Assembly (NCBI GenBank): GCA_023267595.1 | Contig: JAHFNB010000004.1 | Span: 182 to 64,181 of the forward strand | From: a bacterium | GTDB taxonomy: Bacteria; Patescibacteriota; Minisyncoccia; Phycocordibacterales; UBA5272 | Length of the DNA stretch: 64,000 nt | Reading direction: 5' to 3' | Shown: in pieces, positions 3,882 to 62,920 of the stretch | How positions within the stretch are numbered: the first letter of the stretch is position 1 | Layout: each line of letters opens with the position of its first letter | Translations under genes and position numbers: made by a program | Notes under the pieces: model-generated | Seen by the model: the letters and a program-made list of their open reading frames with translations, nothing else | The model's database searches: none | What the model was told of the DNA's origin: nothing

Positions 3882-4286
3882 TTAGTGAAAGATAAATTTT
3901 TTACGAACCCAAAAGTTGTAGATGAGTATAATACAGGTCGATATCATTTTTGAAAAAAGATAGTATACGGCAAGTTTTTCTGTAAAAAACCAGATGAGAG
4001 ATTGGTTAAGTGCGAGGCCTGTGAGACTCACAAAAACTATGAGCCAGTATTCTTTGTGAATATTTGCAATTTTTGACCCTGTAAAGACGAAATATTTTGC
4101 AAGAATGTAATTGATATTTAGCCCAATAATAAATGCAATTGCTGCAGAAGTTAAGTAGTGAATATGTGCATATTCTGTAAGAGTAAAAAGTGTACCGAAA
4201 TCAAATAAAAAAGCCGTACCACCAACGAGGAGATATTTGAAAAACTGTAGTGCTAGTTTCTCATGCTTTTTAAGCAGGGTTATCAT
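3882..4286 (-). CDS. GtrA-family small membrane protein (polysaccharide synthesis/translocation accessory)
   Basis: About 130 aa, four TM helices, N-terminal motif FFKYLLVGGTAFLFDFG typical of the GtrA family. Confidence 0.65.
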   Translation of the reverse strand: MITLLKKHEKLALQFFKYLLVGGTAFLFDFGTLFTLTEYAHIHYLTSAAIAFIIGLNINYILAKYFVFTGSKIANIHKEYWLIVFVSLTGLALNQSLIWFFTEKLAVYYLFSKMISTCIILIYNFWVRKKFIFH

Positions 4287-4305: not shown

Positions 4306-5820
4306 TTACACTCCACGCAAAACGGTTATTTTCGCTCCAATCGCGTTTAATCTCTCGGCAATATCTGCATACCCACGTTTTATAGAATAGACGTTTCTGA
4401 GCAAGGATGTGCCTGATGCTCCAAGCATTGCAATCAGAATAATTGCCGTAGGACGAAGTGCAGGAGGGGATACAATTTGTGCACCGCGCAGTTTGGTCAC
4501 TCCTGTAACTAGTGCTCGGTGTGGGTCGAGTAATTTTATATCTGCACCGAGTCTGTTTAATTCCGTAAAATAAATAGCACGATTCTCCCATGTCCAATCA
4601 TGAATAAGTGTTTGACCAGAGGCTATGCAACTAATGGGGACAAAGAAAGGGAGATTATCATTATTAATACCGGGAAAAGGTTGTGCATGTATCTTATCTG
4701 TCGGAGCAATGATTTTTGAAGGAAATATAGTGATATCGACAAGTGAAGTTCTGCCATTTTTTGCAAAATATAATTTTGAAAGGGTAAAACGTAATCCCAT
4801 ACGTTTTAATTTTTCTAATTCGAGTGTAAGAAATGTAATTGGTGCACGTGTTATGGTGAGTTTGGATTTTGTCACGATTCCTGCGGCAATGAAGAACATA
4901 CTCTCTATTGGATCTTCACTATTGTAGTGTTCGATATTTACATCGATATCCTTTTTCCCATGTACTATAAGTGTTGTGGTACCAATACCTTCTATTACTA
5001 TACCAAAACTCTCTAGGAGGAAACATACATCTTGTACTTGATAATTTGGTGGTGCAAACATAATAGTTGTTTTCCCTTCAATACGTGATGCGGCCAGAAT
5101 TGCAGTAATCGCACCAGTGTCAGATGATTCGTAGAGTGGAATAGTCCCCGTATGTAGTTTTCTATATGAAATATCGTAGTGGTTTTCTTTTGTCTCGACA
5201 TTAATACCAAGGTATTCTAGAGCATATTTATGTGATGCAACCGTGCGTTCACCCATTTTACATCCACCAGAATGTGGAAGTGTAAAATGATTACCATAAT
5301 GAACAAATGCACCCGCAAAGGTAAATGATCTAATTTGTGTTGCAACGGCTTTGTCTATTTTTGAAAAAGAAAGTTTCTTAGGGGGTGTGATTTCAAGAGC
5401 AGTGTCATCATATATCCACTTTATCTTTACACCGACACTTTCGAGCAATTCTTTGTAGCGATGTACTTCTTCTATGTGGGGGATATCACGTAAAATAGTC
5501 GTGCCATTATTGACGAGTGCAGCAACCATCATATTGATGGCACCATTTTTTGAGGTATTTGTCTTTATACTACCTGAAAGTTTATGACCACCCTCTACTT
5601 TGAAATCAATAGCATTGTGAATACTCACTATGTTGTGTTTAAGGACGTCGCTCATCTTCATGAGTTGGTCTATAGTTACATTTTGATTTCCTGATTCTAT
5701 GCGCGCAACTGCAGACTGGGATGTTTTGAGAGACTTTGCAAATTCTCCTTGCGTCATTCCACGCTCTTCACGTAGTTTTTTTATGAAAAGTCCTATTTTT
5801 TCTTGATCATTAGGAGGCAT
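4306..5820 (-). CDS. murA: UDP-N-acetylglucosamine 1-carboxyvinyltransferase (MurA) fused in frame to an N-terminal XRE-family helix-turn-helix domain
   Basis: Residues 10-55 (IGLFIKKLREERGMTQGEFAKSLKTSQSAVARIESG) form an HTH_3 domain. The remainder aligns to MurA, including the catalytic loop GGCKMGERTV (E. coli GGCTIGARPVD) and the C-terminal RGYADIAERLNAIGAKI. Confidence 0.8.
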   Translation of the reverse strand: MPPNDQEKIGLFIKKLREERGMTQGEFAKSLKTSQSAVARIESGNQNVTIDQLMKMSDVLKHNIVSIHNAIDFKVEGGHKLSGSIKTNTSKNGAINMMVAALVNNGTTILRDIPHIEEVHRYKELLESVGVKIKWIYDDTALEITPPKKLSFSKIDKAVATQIRSFTFAGAFVHYGNHFTLPHSGGCKMGERTVASHKYALEYLGINVETKENHYDISYRKLHTGTIPLYESSDTGAITAILAASRIEGKTTIMFAPPNYQVQDVCFLLESFGIVIEGIGTTTLIVHGKKDIDVNIEHYNSEDPIESMFFIAAGIVTKSKLTITRAPITFLTLELEKLKRMGLRFTLSKLYFAKNGRTSLVDITIFPSKIIAPTDKIHAQPFPGINNDNLPFFVPISCIASGQTLIHDWTWENRAIYFTELNRLGADIKLLDPHRALVTGVTKLRGAQIVSPPALRPTAIILIAMLGASGTSLLRNVYSIKRGYADIAERLNAIGAKITVLRGV

Positions 5821-5828
5821 GAAAAAAG

Positions 5829-5846
5829 TATATCATATGTGATATA
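5829..5846. promoter_or_regulatory. 7-4-7 perfect palindrome tatatca-tatg-tgatata, 9 nt upstream of the HTH-murA start codon; operator candidate
   Basis: Seen in sequence, immediately 5' of a gene that itself encodes an XRE HTH domain. Confidence 0.5.
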
Positions 5847-5913
5847 TCATAAAATATGTGAATATAAGAGAAAACTCGGACACAGGGTCCAAGTTTTTAT
5901 AAAGAGGGAAAGT

Positions 5914-6540
5914 TTATACGGGAATCGCAGTTTTTTGTTTGAAGAGTGAAATATCAAGATTCCAGAGTTTGGCAGGGTTAAAGTAAGGATTAGGTATATC
6001 CAAAACTGATTTTTTCACAGATTTTAACCTTTCAAACTCTATATAACCCTCGACATCCGCAGAGTAGTAATCGCGGTATGCACTATATCCTTCGAGGTGA
6101 ATGGCAAATGTGCCATCTGTGTTGAGTACCATCTTGAGTGAGTGCGTTGCTTGGTTACTCATTTTATGCAGAGTAAGGAGAAGATTTCCCTTCTCACACG
6201 AGACGCCAAACTTCTGCTCATCGTAGTGGTATTCATTGATATCATGAGAACACATGTGCATTACGAGAAATGAAACAAGATATGCCATGCCATTCAGAGT
6301 TCCAAACTCGATATCTTCTGTTGGGAACAAGTAACGCACTGTATCCCCAATTAAGCGATCACAACACGTTTGCGCGAATATCGATGGGTCAAATCCGACT
6401 TTTAGACCTTCCCTTGTCGAGTTTTCAGAAAAGCCATCATTTTTTCCATTGAAGAAATTTCTAGCACCTTCGACAAACAACGGGAAAGAAAAATGTTGTA
6501 TTGTTCGCATTTTTACCAACTCATACCTTAGGTTTTTCAA
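5914..6540 (-). CDS. hypothetical protein (soluble, about 200 aa)
   Basis: ORF with no motif I can assign confidently. It lies between murA and mntH. Confidence 0.4.
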   Translation of the reverse strand: MKNLRYELVKMRTIQHFSFPLFVEGARNFFNGKNDGFSENSTREGLKVGFDPSIFAQTCCDRLIGDTVRYLFPTEDIEFGTLNGMAYLVSFLVMHMCSHDINEYHYDEQKFGVSCEKGNLLLTLHKMSNQATHSLKMVLNTDGTFAIHLEGYSAYRDYYSADVEGYIEFERLKSVKKSVLDIPNPYFNPAKLWNLDISLFKQKTAIPV

Positions 6541-6631: not shown

Positions 6632-7897
6632 TTAACGGAAGAGATTATAGAAGAAATAAATGGTAAGTGCAGACATGAGAATGGTAATAATGATTCCAAA
6701 GAAGTTTCCAAGTTTTCCGGTTGTTCTGTCACCCATAATCTTTTTGTTATTTCCTACAAGTAAAATGAGAATCATAAGTGGCGGCGCAAGTAATCCATTT
6801 AATATTGCTGCATAGTAGAGCATAGTCATTGGATTAATAGGGGAAAGATTCACAAGTATTCCTACAAGTGTTGCAACAATGATAACAAGGTAAAATCCAC
6901 GTGCTTGGGTAAATGTTTTACTCAATCCTTCACTCCAGTTTGCGGCTTCTGCTATTGCATAGGCTGCAGAACCTGCAAGGACGGGGACAGCAAGTAATCC
7001 AGTACCGACAATACCAAGCGTAAAGAGTAATGATGAGAAATCTCCTGCAAGCGGGCGTAATGATTCTGCAACTTGAGCAGCAGATGTCACTGAAGTAATG
7101 CCATTTGCACCGAGTGTGGCTGCGGCAGTGATAATAATAAAGAATGTAACGAGATTTGAAATAAACATTCCAAATGCAGTATCGGTACGCATTTGTGTAA
7201 TGTCTGCTCTGGTAATCTTTGGCACACCACGACCCATGGCGCGTATTTTGTGATGCATGAGTTCCTCTTCCACTTCTTCATCGGCTTGCCAGAAAAATAA
7301 ATAAGGAGAAATGGTTGTACCGAGCATTGCTGTTACATTCAAAATATACGCAGTATTCCATTCGAAATGAGGGATAAGCGTTGCATTTAAGATTAGCCCC
7401 CAATCTTGTTTAACGGCAAATGCTGCTATGATATATGCAAACACGGTGAGTGCAAGGTATTTTAAGAAAGAAACATATTTCGGATAGGGAATGAAAACTT
7501 CTGTAAGAATAGTGATAGCAGTAAGTATAAGAAGTGCAGGAACAAAAGAAATAGGAAGTACGAGTTGTGTTGCTGCAGCCATAGCCCCTAAGTCTGCACC
7601 GATATTTATGATATTAGTAATTGCGAGTAATGCAATCGCACCAAACAAAATAGGACGAGAATAGTGTTTCTTTAAAATACCTGCAAGACCAGTTCCTGTA
7701 ACTAATCCAATGCGTGCACACATCTCTTGAATGGAAACCATGAAAGGATATGAAAAGAGTGCAAGCCATAATTGTCCGTATCCAAACATAGCACCAGTTT
7801 GTGAGTATGTTGCAATACCTGAAGGATCGTCATCTGCAATACCAGTAATAACTCCCGGTCCTACTGCCTTTTTAAGGCGTTGTATTAATGATTTCAT
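6632..7897 (-). CDS. mntH: Nramp-family divalent metal (Mn2+/Fe2+) transporter
   Basis: Nramp signature GPGVITGIADDDPSGIATYSQTGA, about 11 TM helices. Confidence 0.9.
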   Translation of the reverse strand: MKSLIQRLKKAVGPGVITGIADDDPSGIATYSQTGAMFGYGQLWLALFSYPFMVSIQEMCARIGLVTGTGLAGILKKHYSRPILFGAIALLAITNIINIGADLGAMAAATQLVLPISFVPALLILTAITILTEVFIPYPKYVSFLKYLALTVFAYIIAAFAVKQDWGLILNATLIPHFEWNTAYILNVTAMLGTTISPYLFFWQADEEVEEELMHHKIRAMGRGVPKITRADITQMRTDTAFGMFISNLVTFFIIITAAATLGANGITSVTSAAQVAESLRPLAGDFSSLLFTLGIVGTGLLAVPVLAGSAAYAIAEAANWSEGLSKTFTQARGFYLVIIVATLVGILVNLSPINPMTMLYYAAILNGLLAPPLMILILLVGNNKKIMGDRTTGKLGNFFGIIITILMSALTIYFFYNLFR

Positions 7898-7964
7898 ATA
7901 GCCCTTAGTTTATAGTCAATAGTTATTAGTTACTAGGGGAATATAAACATATTAAATAAAAAAC

Positions 7965-7994
7965 TATATTTACTTGACTAGTCAAGTAAATATA
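7965..7994. promoter_or_regulatory. 30-bp perfect palindrome tatatttacttgact-agtcaagtaaatata; metalloregulator-type operator candidate about 70 bp upstream of mntH
   Basis: 15+15 perfect inverted repeat read directly. It overlaps the -35 of the consensus promoter listed next. Confidence 0.6.
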
Positions 7995-8003
7995 TGCTAT
8001 AAT
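7974..8003 (+). promoter_or_regulatory. consensus sigma70 promoter TTGACT-N18-TATAAT on the + strand; the -35 is embedded in the palindrome
   Basis: ttgact at 7974-7979 and tataat at 7998-8003. There is no + strand CDS downstream, only a structured 160-nt region and a terminator. Confidence 0.55.
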
Positions 8004-8009
8004 ATATTG

Positions 8010-8141
8010 ATTAGGATACATGATCAAAGTTTTAGAGATGATCATGGAAAGGGCTGAAGGAAAATCCTAGGTTGGATACCGTGCCTCCGGAGACCAACCC
8101 TATACTTTGCTGATGACAAAGTATCAGTACTCGAGTGCATC
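8010..8141 (+). ncRNA. candidate small structured RNA, or cis-leader if read from the other strand for mntH; identity unknown
   Basis: Bracketed by the consensus promoter and an intrinsic terminator. Contains an 8-bp inverted repeat catgatca...tgatcatg, stems aggttgg/ccaacct and agga-aaaa-tcct, and no ORF above 16 codons. Confidence 0.3.
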
Positions 8142-8169
8142 AAAAACCGAGATACGTCTCGGTTTTTTT
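8142..8169. terminator. bidirectional intrinsic terminator (A-run, ccgaga-tacg-tctcgg, T-run) shared by trxB (-) and the putative + strand small RNA
   Basis: Hairpin flanked by A6 on one side and T7 on the other. The trxB stop codon abuts it. Confidence 0.7.
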
Positions 8170-9109
8170 ACGCGTGAATATGAAGATAAATATCTTCTAG
8201 TGCGCGTACTGCATCTCCTGCTGCGATGTTATTTTGATGATATAACACATCTGTGCAATCTCCGGCTGCCCATATACCTTGTACAGACGTCTCTTGTGTA
8301 CGAGGGTTTATTACAATATTTTTCGTCTCAGTTACTTGTACAAGATTTTCTATAAAAGATGTGGCAGGGATTTGACCTATTTCTACAAAGACTGCAGAGG
8401 TTGGAAGAGTTATATCTTCTCCATCTTTTGTATAGGTAATTGATTCGACGAATTTACTTCCTGTAATTGATTTTGGAATTGCACCAACGATAAGTTTAAA
8501 ATGTTCCTTTATTTTTAATTTTTCTATAGTGATTGCATCTGCTCTTGGTTCACTTCGTGAAAGAAGTGTTACTGATTTACAATAGGCGAGTAATTGTGCA
8601 GCAGATTCAAATCCTGCATTTCCTCCACCAACAACTACAACATCCATTCCTGAAAAGAGTGGTCCATCACATGATGCACAATAGGTGATACCTTTATTCT
8701 CAAATTCTTCTGCACCAGTGACCTCTAATTTTCTGCGAGATGAACCTGCTGCGATGAGAATAGTTTTTGATTTCTGCTCTCCTTTATCTGTGGTTATTGT
8801 AAAATCTCCATGTGATCCAGTGATAGACGAAACAGTTGCTTCTATAATGTGTAAAATATCACCTTTGTATTCTTCGACGTGTGATTTAAGGGATTCTGCA
8901 AGTTTTGCACCACTGATATGTGGGGTTCCTATCCAGTTTTGGATATCATCAGACACGATTGATTGTCCTCCCCATTCTTTTACGATAAGAAGTGTTTTTA
9001 GTTGTTTACGCGCAGCATATACTGCAGCAGCACTTCCTGCAGGACCACCTCCTACGATTATTAAATCGTAGATAGGTGAGAGGTTAGAGGTGGTAGGTAA
9101 AAGAGACAT
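8168..9109 (-). CDS. trxB: thioredoxin-disulfide reductase
   Basis: FAD motif IVGGGPAGSAAAVYAA, redox-active CASCDG, and the NAD(P) motif GGGNAGFE. Confidence 0.9.
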   Translation of the reverse strand: MSLLPTTSNLSPIYDLIIVGGGPAGSAAAVYAARKQLKTLLIVKEWGGQSIVSDDIQNWIGTPHISGAKLAESLKSHVEEYKGDILHIIEATVSSITGSHGDFTITTDKGEQKSKTILIAAGSSRRKLEVTGAEEFENKGITYCASCDGPLFSGMDVVVVGGGNAGFESAAQLLAYCKSVTLLSRSEPRADAITIEKLKIKEHFKLIVGAIPKSITGSKFVESITYTKDGEDITLPTSAVFVEIGQIPATSFIENLVQVTETKNIVINPRTQETSVQGIWAAGDCTDVLYHQNNIAAGDAVRALEDIYLHIHA

Positions 9110-59076: not shown

Positions 59077-62000
59077 TTATTGAAGTACTTTTACCTCATC
59101 AATTGCAATAGTTTTTTCTCCATTTCTTGTAGAGACTTTACCACGCATAATAAGGGGAGTGTCGAGTTTCAAGATACTTTTATAACGTTTATATATTTCC
59201 GGGAAAATAGCCACTTCGATAACACCTGTGTAATCACGTAATTTAACAAGTGCCATCTGGTCTCCTTTTTTGGTCATGGTAGTTTTTATAGTTTCTATAA
59301 TTATTGCGAGAGATACTTCTTTACCATCAGGAGTTTCTGAATGGACTTTTTCAATATCAATACCACGACTTTCAATTTTTTCTTTCCATGGATCAAGTGG
59401 AAATCCTGAAACAAAAAGTCCGAGCAATTCTTTTTCCCATGCTAATTTTTGTTCTGCGGTAACAGGGGGTGCTTTTTTCATAACAAATGTTGAGGTCTCC
59501 ATACCACCAAATAAACTATGTTGCATGATGTTGTCTTTTACAACATGTTTATGAAAACTTAAAATGCTATCCATATTAGCAAGTATCTCTCCACGTTCAC
59601 CTAATTCATCAAGTGCTCCACACATGGTGAGTGCTTCGATAGATCGTTTATTTAAGTTTTGGTGTGTGACACGGCGAATGAAATCTTCAAATGATATGAA
59701 CTTTCCTTTTTCGTTTCGTTCTTTAATAATTGCGTCTGCAATATCGCTACCTAGATTTTTAATGGTATAGAGACCAAAACGTATTTCTTCTTTACCGTTA
59801 TCATCTTCAACAATAGAAAATTCTCCCTGACTCATATTAATATCAGGTGGTAATACTTTTATTTTCATACGTTTACATTCAGAAACGATTTCTGCAATCT
59901 TTTCTATATCACCACTTTCATTAGTCATGATGGATGTCATGTAGGCAACAGGGAAGTTTGCTTTCATGTATGCTGTTTGGTAGGCAACACGTCCATAACT
60001 AGCAGCATGTGCTTTGTTGAATCCATATGCGGCGAATGGTTCGATAAGTGACCAAAGTAACTGGCTTTTCTTAGCAGAGAGACCATGCTCAACGAAACCT
60101 TTCAAAAGGTTTTCTTTTTGTGCTTGCATTTCTGCGGGAATCTTTTTACCCATTGCTTTACGAAGTGTATCTGCTTTAAGCCATGAGTATCCTGCTAAGT
60201 GAATAGCAATGAGCATCACATCATCTTGGTAAACAATGACACCAAATGATTGATCAAGAATTGGTTCTAATCTCGGATCCACATATGAAATAAGTGAAGG
60301 GTCATGTTTACGTTTTATATATTCAGGAATCATTTCAAGAGGTCCTGGACGATACAGTGCTACCATTGCATTTATATCAAATATAGTTGTTGGCTTTAAC
60401 TCTTTTAAAAATCGCGTCATTCCAGAACCATTTAATTGAAATAGTCCCATTGTTTCACCTCGAGCAAGCATGTCAAAAGTTTTCTGATCATCAAGAGGAA
60501 TCTCTTCTATATCAATATCAACGCTGTAGCGTTTCTTTGCAATTTTAATTGCGTCTCCAAGAATTGTTAAGTTACGAATACCAAGAAAATCAAATTTAAG
60601 CAATCCCGCGTCTTCAATAGTGTACATGTCATATTGTGTAATAATTTTCCCACCTTTTGGATCTTTTTGAATTGGTGTAAAGTCCCAAAGTGGAGAAGGG
60701 GAGATAACAGTGCCTGCAGCATGAACAGAAATATGACGTGCACACCCTTCTACTTTTTGTGCCATATCTAGAATAATTTGTGTCTCACGGTCGGTGTCAT
60801 ACATTTCCTTGAGTTCTGGAATGTCATCAAGCGCGCTTTTGATAGTAACCGGAAAGCCTTGTTTTGGCATTGGAATTAACTTACTAATTCTATCGCCTAC
60901 AATATAAGGGAATTTCATTGCACGTGCTACGTCACGCACTGCACCACGTGCCATCATCGTACCGAATGTTCCAATCTGTGCAACATTATCCATACCATAT
61001 TTTGCTCGCACATAGTCAAGCACTTCATCACGTCCTGTATCTGCAAAGTCCATATCAATATCAGGTGCAGAAGGACGTTCAGGATTTAAAAATCGTTCGA
61101 AAGGGAGTTTATATTCGAGAGGGTTACATTTTGTAATACGAAGAAGATATGTAGTAAGAGACCCTGCAACTGATCCACGAATATTAGTGAGTATGTCATG
61201 TTCTCGTGCATAGCGTAGTAAATCGTATACCACCAAGAAATATGGCGAGTACCCTTTATCCTTAATTACTTTTAATTCGTAGTCGAGACGTGTTTGTATT
61301 ATTTCATTTAATTCTAATCCTCTAATCTCTATACCTTTGTATGCAAGTTCACGAAGATCTTCATCGTAACTTTTTTTATATTCAATATTTGGAAACACCC
61401 ATGCACCAAGTGGTATTTTCAAGTCACATTTCTCTGCGATTTTTTCAGTATTTTCTAGTGCATCAGGTACATCAGAAAACATACCGTGTACTTCATTTTG
61501 TGAGAGAAAAGAAAAAGAATCTTTTTGAAAGAGATGATTATATGACTCAGTTGAATGCTCATCACCGTGTACAAGATAGAGTGTCTTATGTGCAGGCTTA
61601 TCTTGTTCTTGTAAATAATGTGTATTGCATGTAGCAACAAGGGGAGTATTTGTAGTCTTTCCATATTCTATAGTTTTTGTTCGCATAGTCTCTCCATGCT
61701 CCATAGATTTTTGAGGATTTATTTCAAGATAAAAATCCTCGCCAAAGTTTTCTTTGTAAAAGGCTAACCTCTCATCTGCTTCTTTTCTATTAATTACAAG
61801 AAGGTTACTAATATCACCCCAGACACCACCAGATAAAACAATGAGCCCTTCTTTATAGGTTGTGAGAATACTATCAGTTATTACAGGGGAGAGTGGATTA
61901 GTAACGTTTACAATAGAAGTAATACGCATCAAGTTTTTGTACCCTATAGTATTTTTTGCAATAAGGATGATTTGAAATACTCTGTCATTATATTGAAGAG

Positions 62001-62199
62001 AGTATTCCACACCTATAATAGGTTTAATACCTTTATCAAGACAGGTTTTATAGAACTCTATAGTGCCATACATATTACTATAGTCAGTAATAGCAAGAGA
62101 TGTCATTTTTAGTTGGTTAGCCTTTTTTATCAGATCTCCTACCTTGGGAAGTGCTTTTAAAAGGGAATAATGAGTATGATTACGGAGATGGACGAACAT
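59077..62199 (-). CDS. dnaE: DNA polymerase III alpha subunit
   Basis: N-terminal PHP domain (FVHLRNHTHYSLL) and a DnaE-type polymerase core; 1040 aa. Confidence 0.95.
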   Translation of the reverse strand: MFVHLRNHTHYSLLKALPKVGDLIKKANQLKMTSLAITDYSNMYGTIEFYKTCLDKGIKPIIGVEYSLQYNDRVFQIILIAKNTIGYKNLMRITSIVNVTNPLSPVITDSILTTYKEGLIVLSGGVWGDISNLLVINRKEADERLAFYKENFGEDFYLEINPQKSMEHGETMRTKTIEYGKTTNTPLVATCNTHYLQEQDKPAHKTLYLVHGDEHSTESYNHLFQKDSFSFLSQNEVHGMFSDVPDALENTEKIAEKCDLKIPLGAWVFPNIEYKKSYDEDLRELAYKGIEIRGLELNEIIQTRLDYELKVIKDKGYSPYFLVVYDLLRYAREHDILTNIRGSVAGSLTTYLLRITKCNPLEYKLPFERFLNPERPSAPDIDMDFADTGRDEVLDYVRAKYGMDNVAQIGTFGTMMARGAVRDVARAMKFPYIVGDRISKLIPMPKQGFPVTIKSALDDIPELKEMYDTDRETQIILDMAQKVEGCARHISVHAAGTVISPSPLWDFTPIQKDPKGGKIITQYDMYTIEDAGLLKFDFLGIRNLTILGDAIKIAKKRYSVDIDIEEIPLDDQKTFDMLARGETMGLFQLNGSGMTRFLKELKPTTIFDINAMVALYRPGPLEMIPEYIKRKHDPSLISYVDPRLEPILDQSFGVIVYQDDVMLIAIHLAGYSWLKADTLRKAMGKKIPAEMQAQKENLLKGFVEHGLSAKKSQLLWSLIEPFAAYGFNKAHAASYGRVAYQTAYMKANFPVAYMTSIMTNESGDIEKIAEIVSECKRMKIKVLPPDINMSQGEFSIVEDDNGKEEIRFGLYTIKNLGSDIADAIIKERNEKGKFISFEDFIRRVTHQNLNKRSIEALTMCGALDELGERGEILANMDSILSFHKHVVKDNIMQHSLFGGMETSTFVMKKAPPVTAEQKLAWEKELLGLFVSGFPLDPWKEKIESRGIDIEKVHSETPDGKEVSLAIIIETIKTTMTKKGDQMALVKLRDYTGVIEVAIFPEIYKRYKSILKLDTPLIMRGKVSTRNGEKTIAIDEVKVLQ

Positions 62200-62275: not shown

Positions 62276-62920
62276 ATGAATAAAGCAAAAAAGTATAAAG
62301 GAGTAATAGGTATAGATGAAGTAGGGCGTGGTCCACTTGCAGGGCCTGTTACAGTTTGTGCTATTTATATAGAAAATACAAAACTAGTTAAAAAAGATAT
62401 ATTTGAAGATAATATTAGAGATTCCAAGAAAATAAAAAAAACTACTAGAAACAGTATATATTTAACTATTAGTAAAAACAGATATTTAAAAACAAATATA
62501 AAGTATTCAATTTCTTCAGTATCTGCTAAGTATATTGATAAATATGGTATTCAAGCATCAATAAAGAAATGTGTAGATAAATCTTTATCTGATCTTAAGG
62601 CACTAGGTATTCTTATAGAGAAAATACCTATACATATGGATGCTGGTCTTGTTTCTAGTCATAAAAATCTTAGACAAAGTAATTTCATTAGAGGGGATGA
62701 GAGTTTTACGGAGATAGCACTTGCGTCTATTATGGCGAAAGAAGAGAGAGATATCTACATGCAAAAGTTACATAAAGTGTTTTCTAAGTATAATTGGCAG
62801 AAAAATGTAGGATATGGAACAAAAAAACATAGAGAAGCAATAGACAGGTACGGTATTACAAAATACCATAGAATCTCTTATTTAAAGGCTTTTAAACAAT
62901 TCGATAAAACAGATAATTAA
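62276..62920 (+). CDS. rnhB: ribonuclease HII
   Basis: GIDEVGRGPLAGPV catalytic motif, with a Lys-rich insertion. Confidence 0.85.
   Translation: MNKAKKYKGVIGIDEVGRGPLAGPVTVCAIYIENTKLVKKDIFEDNIRDSKKIKKTTRNSIYLTISKNRYLKTNIKYSISSVSAKYIDKYGIQASIKKCVDKSLSDLKALGILIEKIPIHMDAGLVSSHKNLRQSNFIRGDESFTEIALASIMAKEERDIYMQKLHKVFSKYNWQKNVGYGTKKHREAIDRYGITKYHRISYLKAFKQFDKTDN

Follow-up and report, generated by a model that had tools for sequence, protein, structure and literature searches.

MurA catalyses the first committed step of peptidoglycan precursor synthesis and is the target of fosfomycin. The modes of MurA control known to us are feedback inhibition by UDP-MurNAc and ClpCP proteolysis in Firmicutes, and not DNA binding by the enzyme. 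The window analysed here, a 64-kb stretch of bacterial DNA, contains a gene in which MurA is fused in frame to an N-terminal helix-turn-helix (HTH) domain. From comparison of related loci, we consider it likely that this protein, HTH-MurA, is a previously undescribed 'trigger enzyme', similar to BirA and NadR and of a class that also includes PutA and RbkR, that represses its own promoter. If MurA does bind its own promoter, this would be a third, very direct mode of control beside feedback inhibition and proteolysis.

BirA is listed as the paradigm 'trigger enzyme' (PMC5397151). Like HTH-MurA, it combines a DNA-binding domain at the N-terminus with a metabolic enzyme, and its palindromic operator overlaps a pathway-gene promoter. 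However, BirA uses a winged HTH, another enzyme fold and another pathway, whereas HTH-MurA has an XRE HTH; in addition, BirA represses the bio operon and not solely its own gene, and dimerisation driven by the corepressor biotinyl-AMP is proven for BirA. In NadR and the archaeal RbkR, too, an N-terminal HTH is joined to an enzyme that is active in the pathway under control. Comparative genomics revealed RbkR, with a fused wHTH, conserved 16–20 bp palindromes and autoregulation in many genomes (PMC5397151), and HTH-MurA is recognised here through the same logic. Unlike HTH-MurA, NadR (NMN adenylyltransferase/RN kinase) and RbkR (riboflavin kinase) act in cofactor pathways, and their regulons span several operons, whereas the HTH-MurA site is essentially confined to its own promoter. 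Some RbkR lineages later lost the DNA-binding domain (PMC5397151). Unfused orthologs of HTH-MurA occur in sister lineages (L077, P0121, P0123 and P0124), and fused and unfused forms may replace each other between genomes in a complementary phyletic pattern, as for RbkR/RibK.

Other relatives by design are BzdR, with an XRE HTH and a shikimate-kinase-like domain, and NrtR, with a Nudix-like domain fused to a wHTH (PMC2330246). Both have as effector domain a recruited enzyme fold, which in such regulators is often catalytically dead; this parallels a pseudo-MurA branch described below. In both, however, sensing is the main role of the enzyme-like domain, whereas the catalytic residues of the window protein are intact. 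Restriction-modification (R-M) controller (C) proteins and HipB are XRE dimers that regulate their own genes via palindromic operators located at the promoters of those genes. Together with the N-terminal domain of PlcR, they provide the closest solved sequences to the query HTH (3clc, 4ia8, 2b5a, 4yg4 and 2qfc). In contrast to HTH-MurA, C proteins and HipB are free-standing, have a length of 70–100 aa and dimerise via the HTH itself, PlcR has a separate regulatory domain, and none of them includes an enzyme. Finally, canonical MurA/MurZ proteins share the two-domain fold (TM 0.92), the catalytic Cys loop and the Lys/Arg/Asp set with HTH-MurA, but are only about 25–30% identical to it. They lack its 72-aa N-terminal DNA-binding extension, and HTH-MurA for its part falls under the TIGR01072 cut-off, is without an equivalent of Asp369 and has invariant motifs of its own.

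An in-frame fusion of an XRE-type HTH to MurA

The HTH-MurA coding sequence occupies positions 4306..5820 on the minus strand, where the ORF list gives an ATG start and 504 aa plus a stop codon. An XRE/Cro-C1 type HTH at its N-terminus, as proposed in the earlier note, was located by the Pfam search at residues 13–60 (5641..5784, minus strand; HTH_3, E 4.6e-12, 46.2 bits compared to a gathering threshold of 23). HTH_31 and HTH_19 also match the protein, and the RodZ-type HTH_25 gave no match at E <= 0.01. In the same frame, the EPSP_synthase model (PF00275) aligns with residues 75–491 over its positions 1–417 of 417 (E 5.9e-36), and NCBIfam, alignment to PDB MurAs and Foldseek together place the MurA (UDP-GlcNAc enolpyruvyl transferase) domain at residues 73–504 (4309..5604, minus strand). 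The MurA is thus full length, as had been claimed, and contains the catalytic Cys loop GGCKMGERTV. Among the NCBIfam models, the N-terminal region of PRK08154 'anaerobic benzoate catabolism transcriptional regulator', which we take to be BzdR, is matched by the query HTH (E 9.4e-07).

An AlphaFold2 monomer model of the window protein has a pLDDT of 94.4. It shows HTH helices at residues 5–19, 24–30, 35–42 and 50–60, with a pLDDT of 89–97 across most of the domain; linker residues 61–70 are modelled at about 74, with values >95 on either side.

The fusion is kept as one ORF at about 160 independent loci in Paceibacterota/CPR, sampled as 80 GTDB species representatives and 80 metagenome contigs, and in the genomes of four Nonomuraea species. 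The fused proteins form about 120 clusters with 78–100% identity, more than 100 of which have the same 504-aa length. Compared with the window protein, orthologs are 71% identical in the HTH and 75% in the MurA part, so that the HTH is conserved almost as well, and no stop or frameshift splits the two domains in any ortholog examined. The N-terminal extension is conserved and is an HTH, so neither of the findings that the earlier note named as refuting the fusion was made. The earlier note had also allowed for a stand-alone MurA starting at Met54 or Met56. We rejected these internal starts for lack of conservation, as just 19 of 77 orthologs have Met54 and 24 of 77 have Met56.

A protein identical to the window protein was already in public data, and the fusion is auto-annotated as either 'UDP-N-acetylglucosamine 1-carboxyvinyltransferase' or 'helix-turn-helix domain-containing protein'. 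The suggestion that the architecture is undescribed thus stands for the literature, where a full-text search found no paper describing an HTH-MurA fusion (the 'MurA' match in one XRE-motif paper is an author name among its references), but the fusion is not rare in databases, occurring in hundreds of uncultured CPR bacteria as well as in cultured Nonomuraea. Thousands of entries named 'MurA' or 'HTH domain-containing protein' would merit a bifunctional label if our reading is right.

The palindrome and its co-variation with the recognition helix

An 18-bp palindrome, TATATCACATATGATATA on the coding strand, lies at 5829..5846. Its 7-nt arms, TATATCA and TGATATA, are perfectly complementary, the central CATA is not self-complementary, and the sequence doubles as a direct repeat of ATGATATA. 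The earlier note had placed this 7-4-7 element exactly, but its distance to the ATG is 8 nt (5821–5828) rather than 9. We found the palindrome at 73/77 orthologous loci of species representatives with upstream DNA, and at 76/78 independent metagenome loci; the family consensus is TATATCATATATGATATA. In 58/73 loci the first in-frame ATG is 8–13 nt downstream, and the intergenic DNA flanking the palindrome is not alignable among orthologs. The whole 18-mer is perfectly palindromic in 28/73 loci, and the central 4 nt are palindromic in the consensus. Such symmetry fits a symmetric dimer and is not needed by a hairpin loop.

We next consider how specific this site is. The 64-kb window contains just one site at up to 3 mismatches; in DNA this AT-rich 0.40 such matches are expected, and at least one occurred in 33/100 shuffles, so a single match is not beyond chance and the significance of the operator derives from its conservation at orthologous loci. 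A scan of 708 kb of related loci gave 65 stringent matches, 63 of them at the HTH-murA promoter, the two extra sites being at L027, before a trxB-like ORF, and at L015. A broad regulon was dropped as an explanation on the basis of these counts. In Nonomuraea, where the DNA is about 70% GC, all four species have the site ATCTCATATGTGAGAT about 10–12 nt before the HTH-murA start, which it directly precedes, and the divergent intergenic region that lies upstream of the fmt/ECH gene contained no convincing operator.

The right arm of the operator overlaps an extended -10 element, TGATATACT, at 5827..5835 on the minus strand, which ends 6 nt before the ATG. Read in the gene direction, 59/73 loci have a T at +2 past the palindrome, compared to 32/73 on the opposite strand. 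Among 51 long ORFs in the window, 32 have a TAnnnT box 0–16 nt (mostly 6–9 nt) before the ATG and 3 have SD-like motifs; no SD is visible before HTH-murA. TGATATACT is also found ahead of two further genes of the window. The right arm therefore equals the organism's generic extended -10, and part of the operator conservation is promoter conservation. The position of the -10 suggests that the HTH-murA transcript is leaderless or nearly so. A generic sigma-70 scan did not report the HTH-murA promoter; the tool reports promoters only if they have a -35 hexamer, and this hexamer may be missing from an extended -10 promoter. Upstream, a predicted terminator-like hairpin with a T-run ends the preceding ORF (5871..5897, minus strand; terminator scan) and isolates the HTH-murA promoter from it. 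Two further arrangements were set aside. The left arm does not look like a divergent promoter, as the -10 hexamer is complete solely in the gene direction and the upstream gene is co-directional in the window, and an operon with the downstream GtrA and membrane genes was rejected because downstream synteny is not conserved. The syntenic neighbours are just the upstream Nramp and TrxR genes.

An alignment of 77 orthologs identified the recognition-helix segment as S34-Q-S-A-V-A-R-I-E42 (5695..5721, minus strand). A change of Ser34 to Thr at the start of this helix tracks a symmetric change from T·A to G·C in both operator arms (positions 5 and 14). Thr34 was found with the TATAGCA..TGCTATA operator in 13/14 cases, compared to 0/59 for other residues (p = 1.6e-13, not corrected for phylogeny), and the pairing was replicated in the independent metagenome loci (11/12 compared to 0/64). 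In a tree of the MurA domain, the Thr34/G..C state appears in at least two well-separated clades. Other symmetric variants of the operator also occur (TATACC..GGTATA, TATCTC..GAGATA and TATAAC..GTTATA), and hybrid operators are present at L044, L054, L063 and L067. The Ser34/Thr34 difference, with its T·A/G·C pairing, would be a ready-made specificity swap.

Loci that lack the palindrome serve as natural controls. Q35 and R40 are present at 73/73 loci with the palindrome and at 0/4 without it, the latter being orthologs with a diverged recognition helix (L049 and L074-76). Three unfused relatives, L077, L089 and L090, have kept a -10-like box (TGnTATACT in L089 and L090), but none of them has the left arm. 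Taken together, the conservation of the palindrome, its overlap with the -10, the fact that unfused relatives have no left arm and the co-variation of both arms with residue 34 strongly support, on comparative grounds, the earlier proposal that the gene regulates itself through this site.

The MurA domain as a probable enzyme

Our best reading, judged from its residues, is that the window protein is a catalytically competent MurA. K91, N92, R164, C187, R192, D388, R456 and R482 are present in the query and invariant in 20 close fused homologs, and the same eight columns show conservation across 76 canonical MurAs with no or almost no exceptions (with Cys or Asp at the loop position). This set corresponds to E. 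coli K22, N23, R91, C115, R120, D305, R371 and R397. HMMER aligns the query end to end with solved MurAs and makes Cys187 (codon at 5260..5262, minus strand) the equivalent of E. coli Cys115, which is catalytic and targeted by fosfomycin. Foldseek gave target-normalised TM-scores of 0.91–0.93 to 1uae, 5u4h, 3swd and others.

By the curated family models, the MurA domain is divergent. The protein scores 298.2 bits against the subfamily model NF006873, about 1 bit above the cut-off of 297, and falls below the cut-offs of the TIGR01072 equivalog (279.4 compared to 392.7) and NF009470 (201.6 compared to 552). The equivalent of Asp369, canonically within '(S/T)PD-x-R', is absent, the query having PPALRP there in a local alignment that is ambiguous by one column. 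PPALRP is found in the whole subfamily, including the unfused P0121, P0123 and P0124, and together with APPNYQVQDVCF and HDWTWENRAIYFTE it makes up the invariant motifs of the HTH-MurA family. The curated models make no use of the Asp369 position to define the family.

Unfused members of the same subfamily are 63% (L077), 62% (P0121) and 51% (P0124) identical to the query, with P0123 as a further member. P0124 has housekeeping genes as neighbours, on a contig of 641 kb that is tagged as circular in its name. L077, P0121 and P0124 look like the ordinary MurAs of their organisms.

More distant fused relatives, at 31–38% identity, have lost most catalytic residues and kept the HTH and the same operator. 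One of these pseudoenzymes adjoins a canonical 438-aa MurA that is just 25% identical to the query.

A predicted autoregulatory circuit and its alternatives

In our proposed mechanism, the target of the N-terminal XRE-type HTH is the 18-bp palindrome, which lies across the extended -10 box of the gene itself. Binding would presumably be by a dimer, with one HTH on each 7-bp arm and a distance of 11 bp between the arm centres. MurAs of solved structure are mostly described as monomers. The operator is centred about 17–18 bp upstream of the ATG, which would probably also be the transcription start. Because the operator lies over the -10 box, its occupancy would be expected to exclude RNA polymerase and repress transcription, and the level of MurA would be set by negative autoregulation. 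The near confinement of the operator to this promoter suggests a circuit that is local, complete in itself and passed on together with the gene. We thus infer DNA binding, dimerisation, the sign of the regulation and the leaderless start from the comparative data. Known MurAs undergo a large open-to-closed domain movement driven by substrate or product binding, and ligand control of DNA binding by the MurA domain might be imagined, in which UDP-GlcNAc, PEP or UDP-MurNAc would alter DNA affinity and couple MurA synthesis to precursor pools. The sensing of UDP-GlcNAc or PEP put forward in the earlier note is likewise speculative. For CPR/Patescibacteria the autoregulation would be a rare predicted circuit in which the regulator, operator, promoter and specificity residue are all readable from sequence, and the Nonomuraea homologs offer a cultured, genetically accessible host.

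Several other explanations could account for parts of these data. That the fusion is an artefact of gene calling or assembly, made from an XRE regulator gene and a separate murA or read through an internal start, is suggested just by the presence of the two Met codons, and we regard it as practically negligible, since about 160 independent loci, which come from different samples and were put together by different assemblers, have the frame uninterrupted, those codons are poorly conserved and the linker junction is confidently modelled. It is also highly improbable, though slightly less so, that the inverted repeat is an RNA or DNA hairpin, for instance one that affects translation or stability from within a 5' leader. 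The arms can pair, with a predicted RNA fold of -5.2 kcal/mol, but this fold is weak (z = -1.8, equalled in 10/200 shuffles) and AU-only and there is no Rfam match, on which grounds we rejected an RNA element; furthermore, the central 4 nt of the consensus are palindromic, the repeat is probably not transcribed from its own promoter, given that its right arm forms the -10 box, and the upstream terminator-like hairpin limits read-through. The palindrome might instead be a promoter element or the site of another factor, with the HTH acting as a protein adaptor. RodZ, a cell-wall-associated protein, has an XRE-like HTH that binds MreB and not DNA, and the identity of the right arm with the generic extended -10 would fit such a role. 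However, the left arm is absent in three unfused relatives that still have the -10 box, shows no sign of being a divergent promoter, and varies together with the right arm as residue 34 changes in two datasets. In addition, the palindrome is gone where the recognition helix has diverged, the site accompanies the gene into high-GC Actinomycetota, and the Pfam matches are to DNA-binding HTH families and not to HTH_25. This reading is therefore very unlikely.

A stronger competitor, though still unlikely, is that HTH-MurA is purely a regulator, with the MurA-like domain doing no more than sensing a ligand or mediating oligomerisation, while another, canonical MurA encoded elsewhere in the genome makes UDP-GlcNAc-enolpyruvate. 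It is clear that the distant fused relatives are pseudoenzymes, and one lies beside a canonical MurA; the query itself scores below the TIGR01072 cut-off and is missing the Asp369 equivalent, and Nonomuraea, with genomes of 10–13 Mb, presumably also has a housekeeping MurA. Set against this, pseudoenzymes quickly lose the eight checked catalytic and substrate-binding residues, which are invariant in the query clade, and the unfused subfamily members L077, P0121 and P0124 look like ordinary MurAs. There is also no second MurA within the 64-kb window, which is weak evidence on the whole genome. We thus favour an active enzyme that represses its own gene.

The pseudoenzyme branch hints at how such an enzyme-regulator evolves into a pure pathway regulator, and may flag the metabolite by which cells gauge cell-wall precursor flux. 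It is conceivable, although we would lean against it at present, that in a large part of the CPR the sole MurA is a ligand-responsive autorepressor whose open or closed state, set by UDP-GlcNAc, PEP or UDP-MurNAc, is read at its own leaderless promoter, and that such proteins gave rise to a so far unnoticed class of dead-MurA sensor transcription factors controlling murA-murB and ddl/mur-ligase operons. One pseudoenzyme relative lies between a divergent murA-murB pair and its own ddl/mur-ligase operon, a second heads a NUDIX/NTP-transferase operon and a third adjoins murB; operators in this branch are found at the murA-murB/ddl and NUDIX/NTP-transferase promoters.

The fused gene and its relatives

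The HTH-murA gene is a single open reading frame of 504 codons on the minus strand (4306-5820), in which Pfam places an HTH_3 domain (XRE/Cro-C1 helix-turn-helix; residues 13-60, E 4.6e-12) directly before a complete EPSP_synthase-fold domain (residues 75-491, model positions 1-417 of 417, E 5.9e-36). This bears out the earlier note's reading of an HTH fused in frame to a full MurA. NCBIfam assigns the C-terminal part to MurA, as a divergent member, with 298.2 bits for the NF006873 subfamily model (cut-off 297). Solved MurAs, which are about 25-30% identical to the window protein, align with it end to end, and this alignment matches the Cys loop (GGCKMGERT), the SKN motif and the C-terminal RGY motif. 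The AlphaFold2 model, built from an alignment of 111 sequences, is confident (pLDDT 94.4, pTM 0.86) and has four HTH helices (residues 5-19, 24-30, 35-42 and 50-60) followed by a linker of lower confidence (about 61-70), and its MurA part superimposes on 1uae, 5u4h, 3swd and others with target-normalised TM-scores of 0.91-0.93. A terminator-like hairpin (5871-5897, minus strand) follows the upstream ORF. In most relatives the direct upstream neighbour is Nramp, 50-150 nt off; in the window, a 208-aa ORF (5914-6540, minus strand) lacking a Pfam match lies between the two, and it was seen elsewhere only in one other locus (L001), at 30% identity.

Sequence comparison shows that the fusion is genuine and common. 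Public data contain an identical copy of the protein, and the best 120 protein clusters are 78-100% identical to it; nearly all share its length, and the architecture recorded is HTH plus EPSP_synthase in every cluster except one. Their named members are Candidatus Paceibacterota, Nomurabacteria or Parcubacteria. Scanning GTDB species representatives gave 80 loci at 56-87% identity, nearly all covering residues 1-504. Metagenome contigs, scanned independently, added 80 more fused genes at 33-60%, of which 79 keep all eight catalytic residues checked. Across 77 orthologs, mean identity to the window protein is 71% for the HTH (residues 9-62) versus 75% for the MurA domain, so purifying selection on the two is comparable. 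A separate start at an internal Met (54 or 56), once considered as an alternative, is not supported, since these residues are present in just 19 and 24 of the 77 orthologs. Full-text literature searches turned up no account of a MurA fused to an HTH, or of a MurA acting on DNA. In databases the proteins are already widespread, labelled only as MurA or HTH-domain proteins.

An all-against-library HMMER search extended the fused proteins down to 30% identity and also found a 246-member cluster from cultured Nonomuraea (Actinomycetota) at 48%; such identity to CPR proteins suggests horizontal transfer. In four Nonomuraea loci (L081, L086, L087 and L088) a formyltransferase/enoyl-CoA-hydratase fusion gene always lies upstream and a tyrosine integrase downstream, with outer flanks that vary by species, and the whole resembles a small integrative island. 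The search also returned MurAs of this subfamily that are not fused, at 62% (P0121) and 51% identity (P0123 and P0124). One relative of 529 aa (P0125, 44% identity in the hit list) keeps the catalytic residues and has a 78-aa N-terminal extension that resembles a degenerate HTH and does not align with that of the window protein; a 1204-aa protein with its MurA domain at residues 755-1200 (P0167) is a separate, unrelated MurA fusion. The MAG CAYWEW01 carries two HTH-MurA genes on separate contigs (L004 and L031, with 85% and 79% identity to that of the window), which are either paralogs or strains mixed in the bin.

A probable operator that co-varies with the HTH

The palindrome reported near the gene start was confirmed at 5829-5846 (coding strand TATATCA-CATA-TGATATA), although it ends 8 nt before the ATG rather than 9. 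We took upstream DNA for every ortholog, and of the 77 fused genes with upstream sequence, 73 carry an 18-mer of consensus TATATCATATATGATATA. It is a perfect palindrome in 28 of these 73, the first in-frame ATG lies 8-13 nt 3' of it in 58, and the surrounding intergenic DNA is unrelated among orthologs. The independent metagenome set has the operator in 76/78 loci. A stringent detector run over 708 kb (loci plus window) returned 65 sites, 63 of them at an HTH-murA promoter, and the 64-kb window holds no further copy besides 5829-5846. Four Nonomuraea species, with DNA of ~70% GC, have an AT-rich palindrome, ATCTCATATGTGAGAT, about 10-12 nt before the start codon.

Furthermore, the operator changes together with the protein. 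Operators with a symmetric change of the two arms, at positions 5 and 14 (TATAGCA..TGCTATA), pair with Thr, instead of the Ser of the window protein, at residue 34, just before the recognition helix in K-T-[S/T]-Q-S-A-V-A-R. In the species set 13/14 proteins with Thr34 have the G..C operator, compared to 0/59 where residue 34 is not Thr (Fisher p = 1.6e-13, with no correction for phylogeny), and the independent metagenome set repeats the pairing (11/12 versus 0/64, p = 2e-12). On a neighbour-joining tree of the MurA domain alone, at least two clades that lie well apart, L064/L066 and the L029-L047 group, show the Thr34/G·C state, with hybrid operators in intermediates. Other symmetric variants occur (TATACC..GGTATA, TATCTC..GAGATA and TATAAC..GTTATA), and the four orthologs that have lost Q35 and R40 from the recognition helix (L049 and Kaiserbacteria L074-76) are exactly the four without the palindrome. 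On this comparative evidence, we regard the palindrome as a conserved cis-element linked to the HTH.

One relative has another perfect palindrome of the operator type, TATATCACGTGTGATATAAT (264-281 of L027), which stands 10 nt before a thioredoxin-reductase-like ORF and may reflect occasional regulon expansion; another operator-like site lies at the 5' end of a small ORF (L015, 2414). As an RNA hairpin the operator was a poor fit (fold -5.2 kcal/mol, z = -1.8), the consensus centre is itself palindromic, and an Rfam search of the operator region gave no match.

Promoter overlap and proposed mechanism

Together with the two bases that follow it, the right operator arm makes up an extended -10 box, TGATATA(C/A)T. 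In the gene direction, 59/73 loci have T as the second base past the palindrome, versus 32/73 on the other strand, thus only the gene-proximal arm appears to double as a promoter. Three unfused relatives (L077, L089 and L090) serve as a natural control: they keep a -10 box near the ATG and lack the left arm; L077 is a Nomurabacteria species whose MurA begins at the equivalent of residue 70. In L090 the box is TGTATACT, 8 nt before the ATG, with no palindrome, and a tRNA-like sequence (5930-6005) lies directly 5' of the gene. In the window, the -10 hexamer of HTH-murA ends 6 nt upstream of the ATG, before which no Shine-Dalgarno sequence is visible. This agrees with the genome in general: of the 51 long window ORFs, 32 are preceded by a TAnnnT box at a distance of 0-16 nt (usually 6-9 nt) from the ATG and only three by an SD-like motif, which suggests predominantly leaderless transcription.

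TATACT/TATAAT-like boxes 6-9 nt before the ATG, often TGnTATACT, are seen for most long ORFs, for example those at 59077-62199 (-), 62276-62920 (+), 33219 (+) and 3882-4286 (-), and TGATATACT, with the same letters as the operator's right arm, also precedes two other window genes. Short tandem motifs (ccacctaccacctaccacct, cactgctcactgctcactg and tctaatgtctaatgtc) just 5' of -10-like boxes at ORF starts 21833 (+), 55059 (-) and 29114 (+) may be sites for other factors.

Comparison across orthologs establishes the parts of the putative circuit, their conservation and their co-evolution. We hypothesize that an HTH-MurA dimer would bind both 7-bp arms, the centres of which are separated by 11 bp, or roughly one helical turn. 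The operator is centred about 17-18 bp before the ATG, where transcription probably also starts, and bound protein would occlude the extended -10 box and so repress, rather than activate, transcription of its own gene. In known MurAs, occupancy by UDP-GlcNAc, PEP or UDP-MurNAc closes the two lobes, and several liganded MurA structures are among the structural matches of our model; speculatively, these ligands in the enzyme domain would alter DNA affinity.

Enzyme, regulator and pseudoenzyme relatives

The self-regulation through its own promoter that the earlier note predicted is supported by operator conservation, the -10 overlap and residue-34 co-variation, and we consider it likely that the window protein is an autoregulating MurA. 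It is unlikely that it is mainly a regulator while another MurA does the chemistry. This alternative could draw on the absence of an Asp369 equivalent from the subfamily, where the motif is PPALRP, and on a score of 279.4 bits for the TIGR01072 equivalog model, short of the 392.7 cut-off. However, the eight active-site residues checked are invariant in the HTH-MurA clade, Nonomuraea and the unfused relatives, and the 64-kb window has no second MurA homolog. Unfused P0124 neighbours the IF-2, RbfA, RuvB and SerRS genes, a setting expected of a housekeeping gene, on a contig of 641 kb that has a circular tag in its name.

BirA, NadR, PutA and RbkR are trigger enzymes, as described in PMC5397151 (section 14), and an autoregulating HTH-MurA would follow the same principle. 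The support for this reading is comparative and solid. For the HTH alone, the nearest known proteins are R-M controller proteins and HipB.

The HTH, with its TSQSA[VI]ARIE-G-QN helix, is kept in fused relatives at 30-40% identity, which have lost the Cys loop and several of the Lys/Arg residues; this branch resembles BzdR and NrtR. Because these regulators keep a dead MurA fold of 430 aa, we argue that the MurA domain contributes to regulation family-wide, as a sensor or oligomerisation module. Four were traced to genomic loci, and the branch points to control of genes for cell-wall precursors. P0129 is transcribed divergently from a canonical murA-murB pair, with ddl and a mur ligase downstream. 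The intergenic region, 60 nt long, has the sequence TTGACA-aTATATCATATATGATATt, in which the operator fills the -35/-10 spacer; by inspection, the operator's other arm, read on the opposite strand, resembles an extended -10 of the divergent operon. P0138 comes last in a NUDIX/NTP-transferase operon headed by TATATCATATAGGATATAtaat, P0181 follows murB and relA/spoT with AATATCAAATATGATATA 19 nt before its start, and L091, from the metagenome set and with its catalytic residues absent, has a symmetric variant, TATAACTTATATGTTATA, 12 nt before its start. In the pseudo-MurA regulator locus L082, the next gene (7493-9082) encodes a D-Ala-D-Ala ligase of 529 aa that also matches Peptidase_C39_2.
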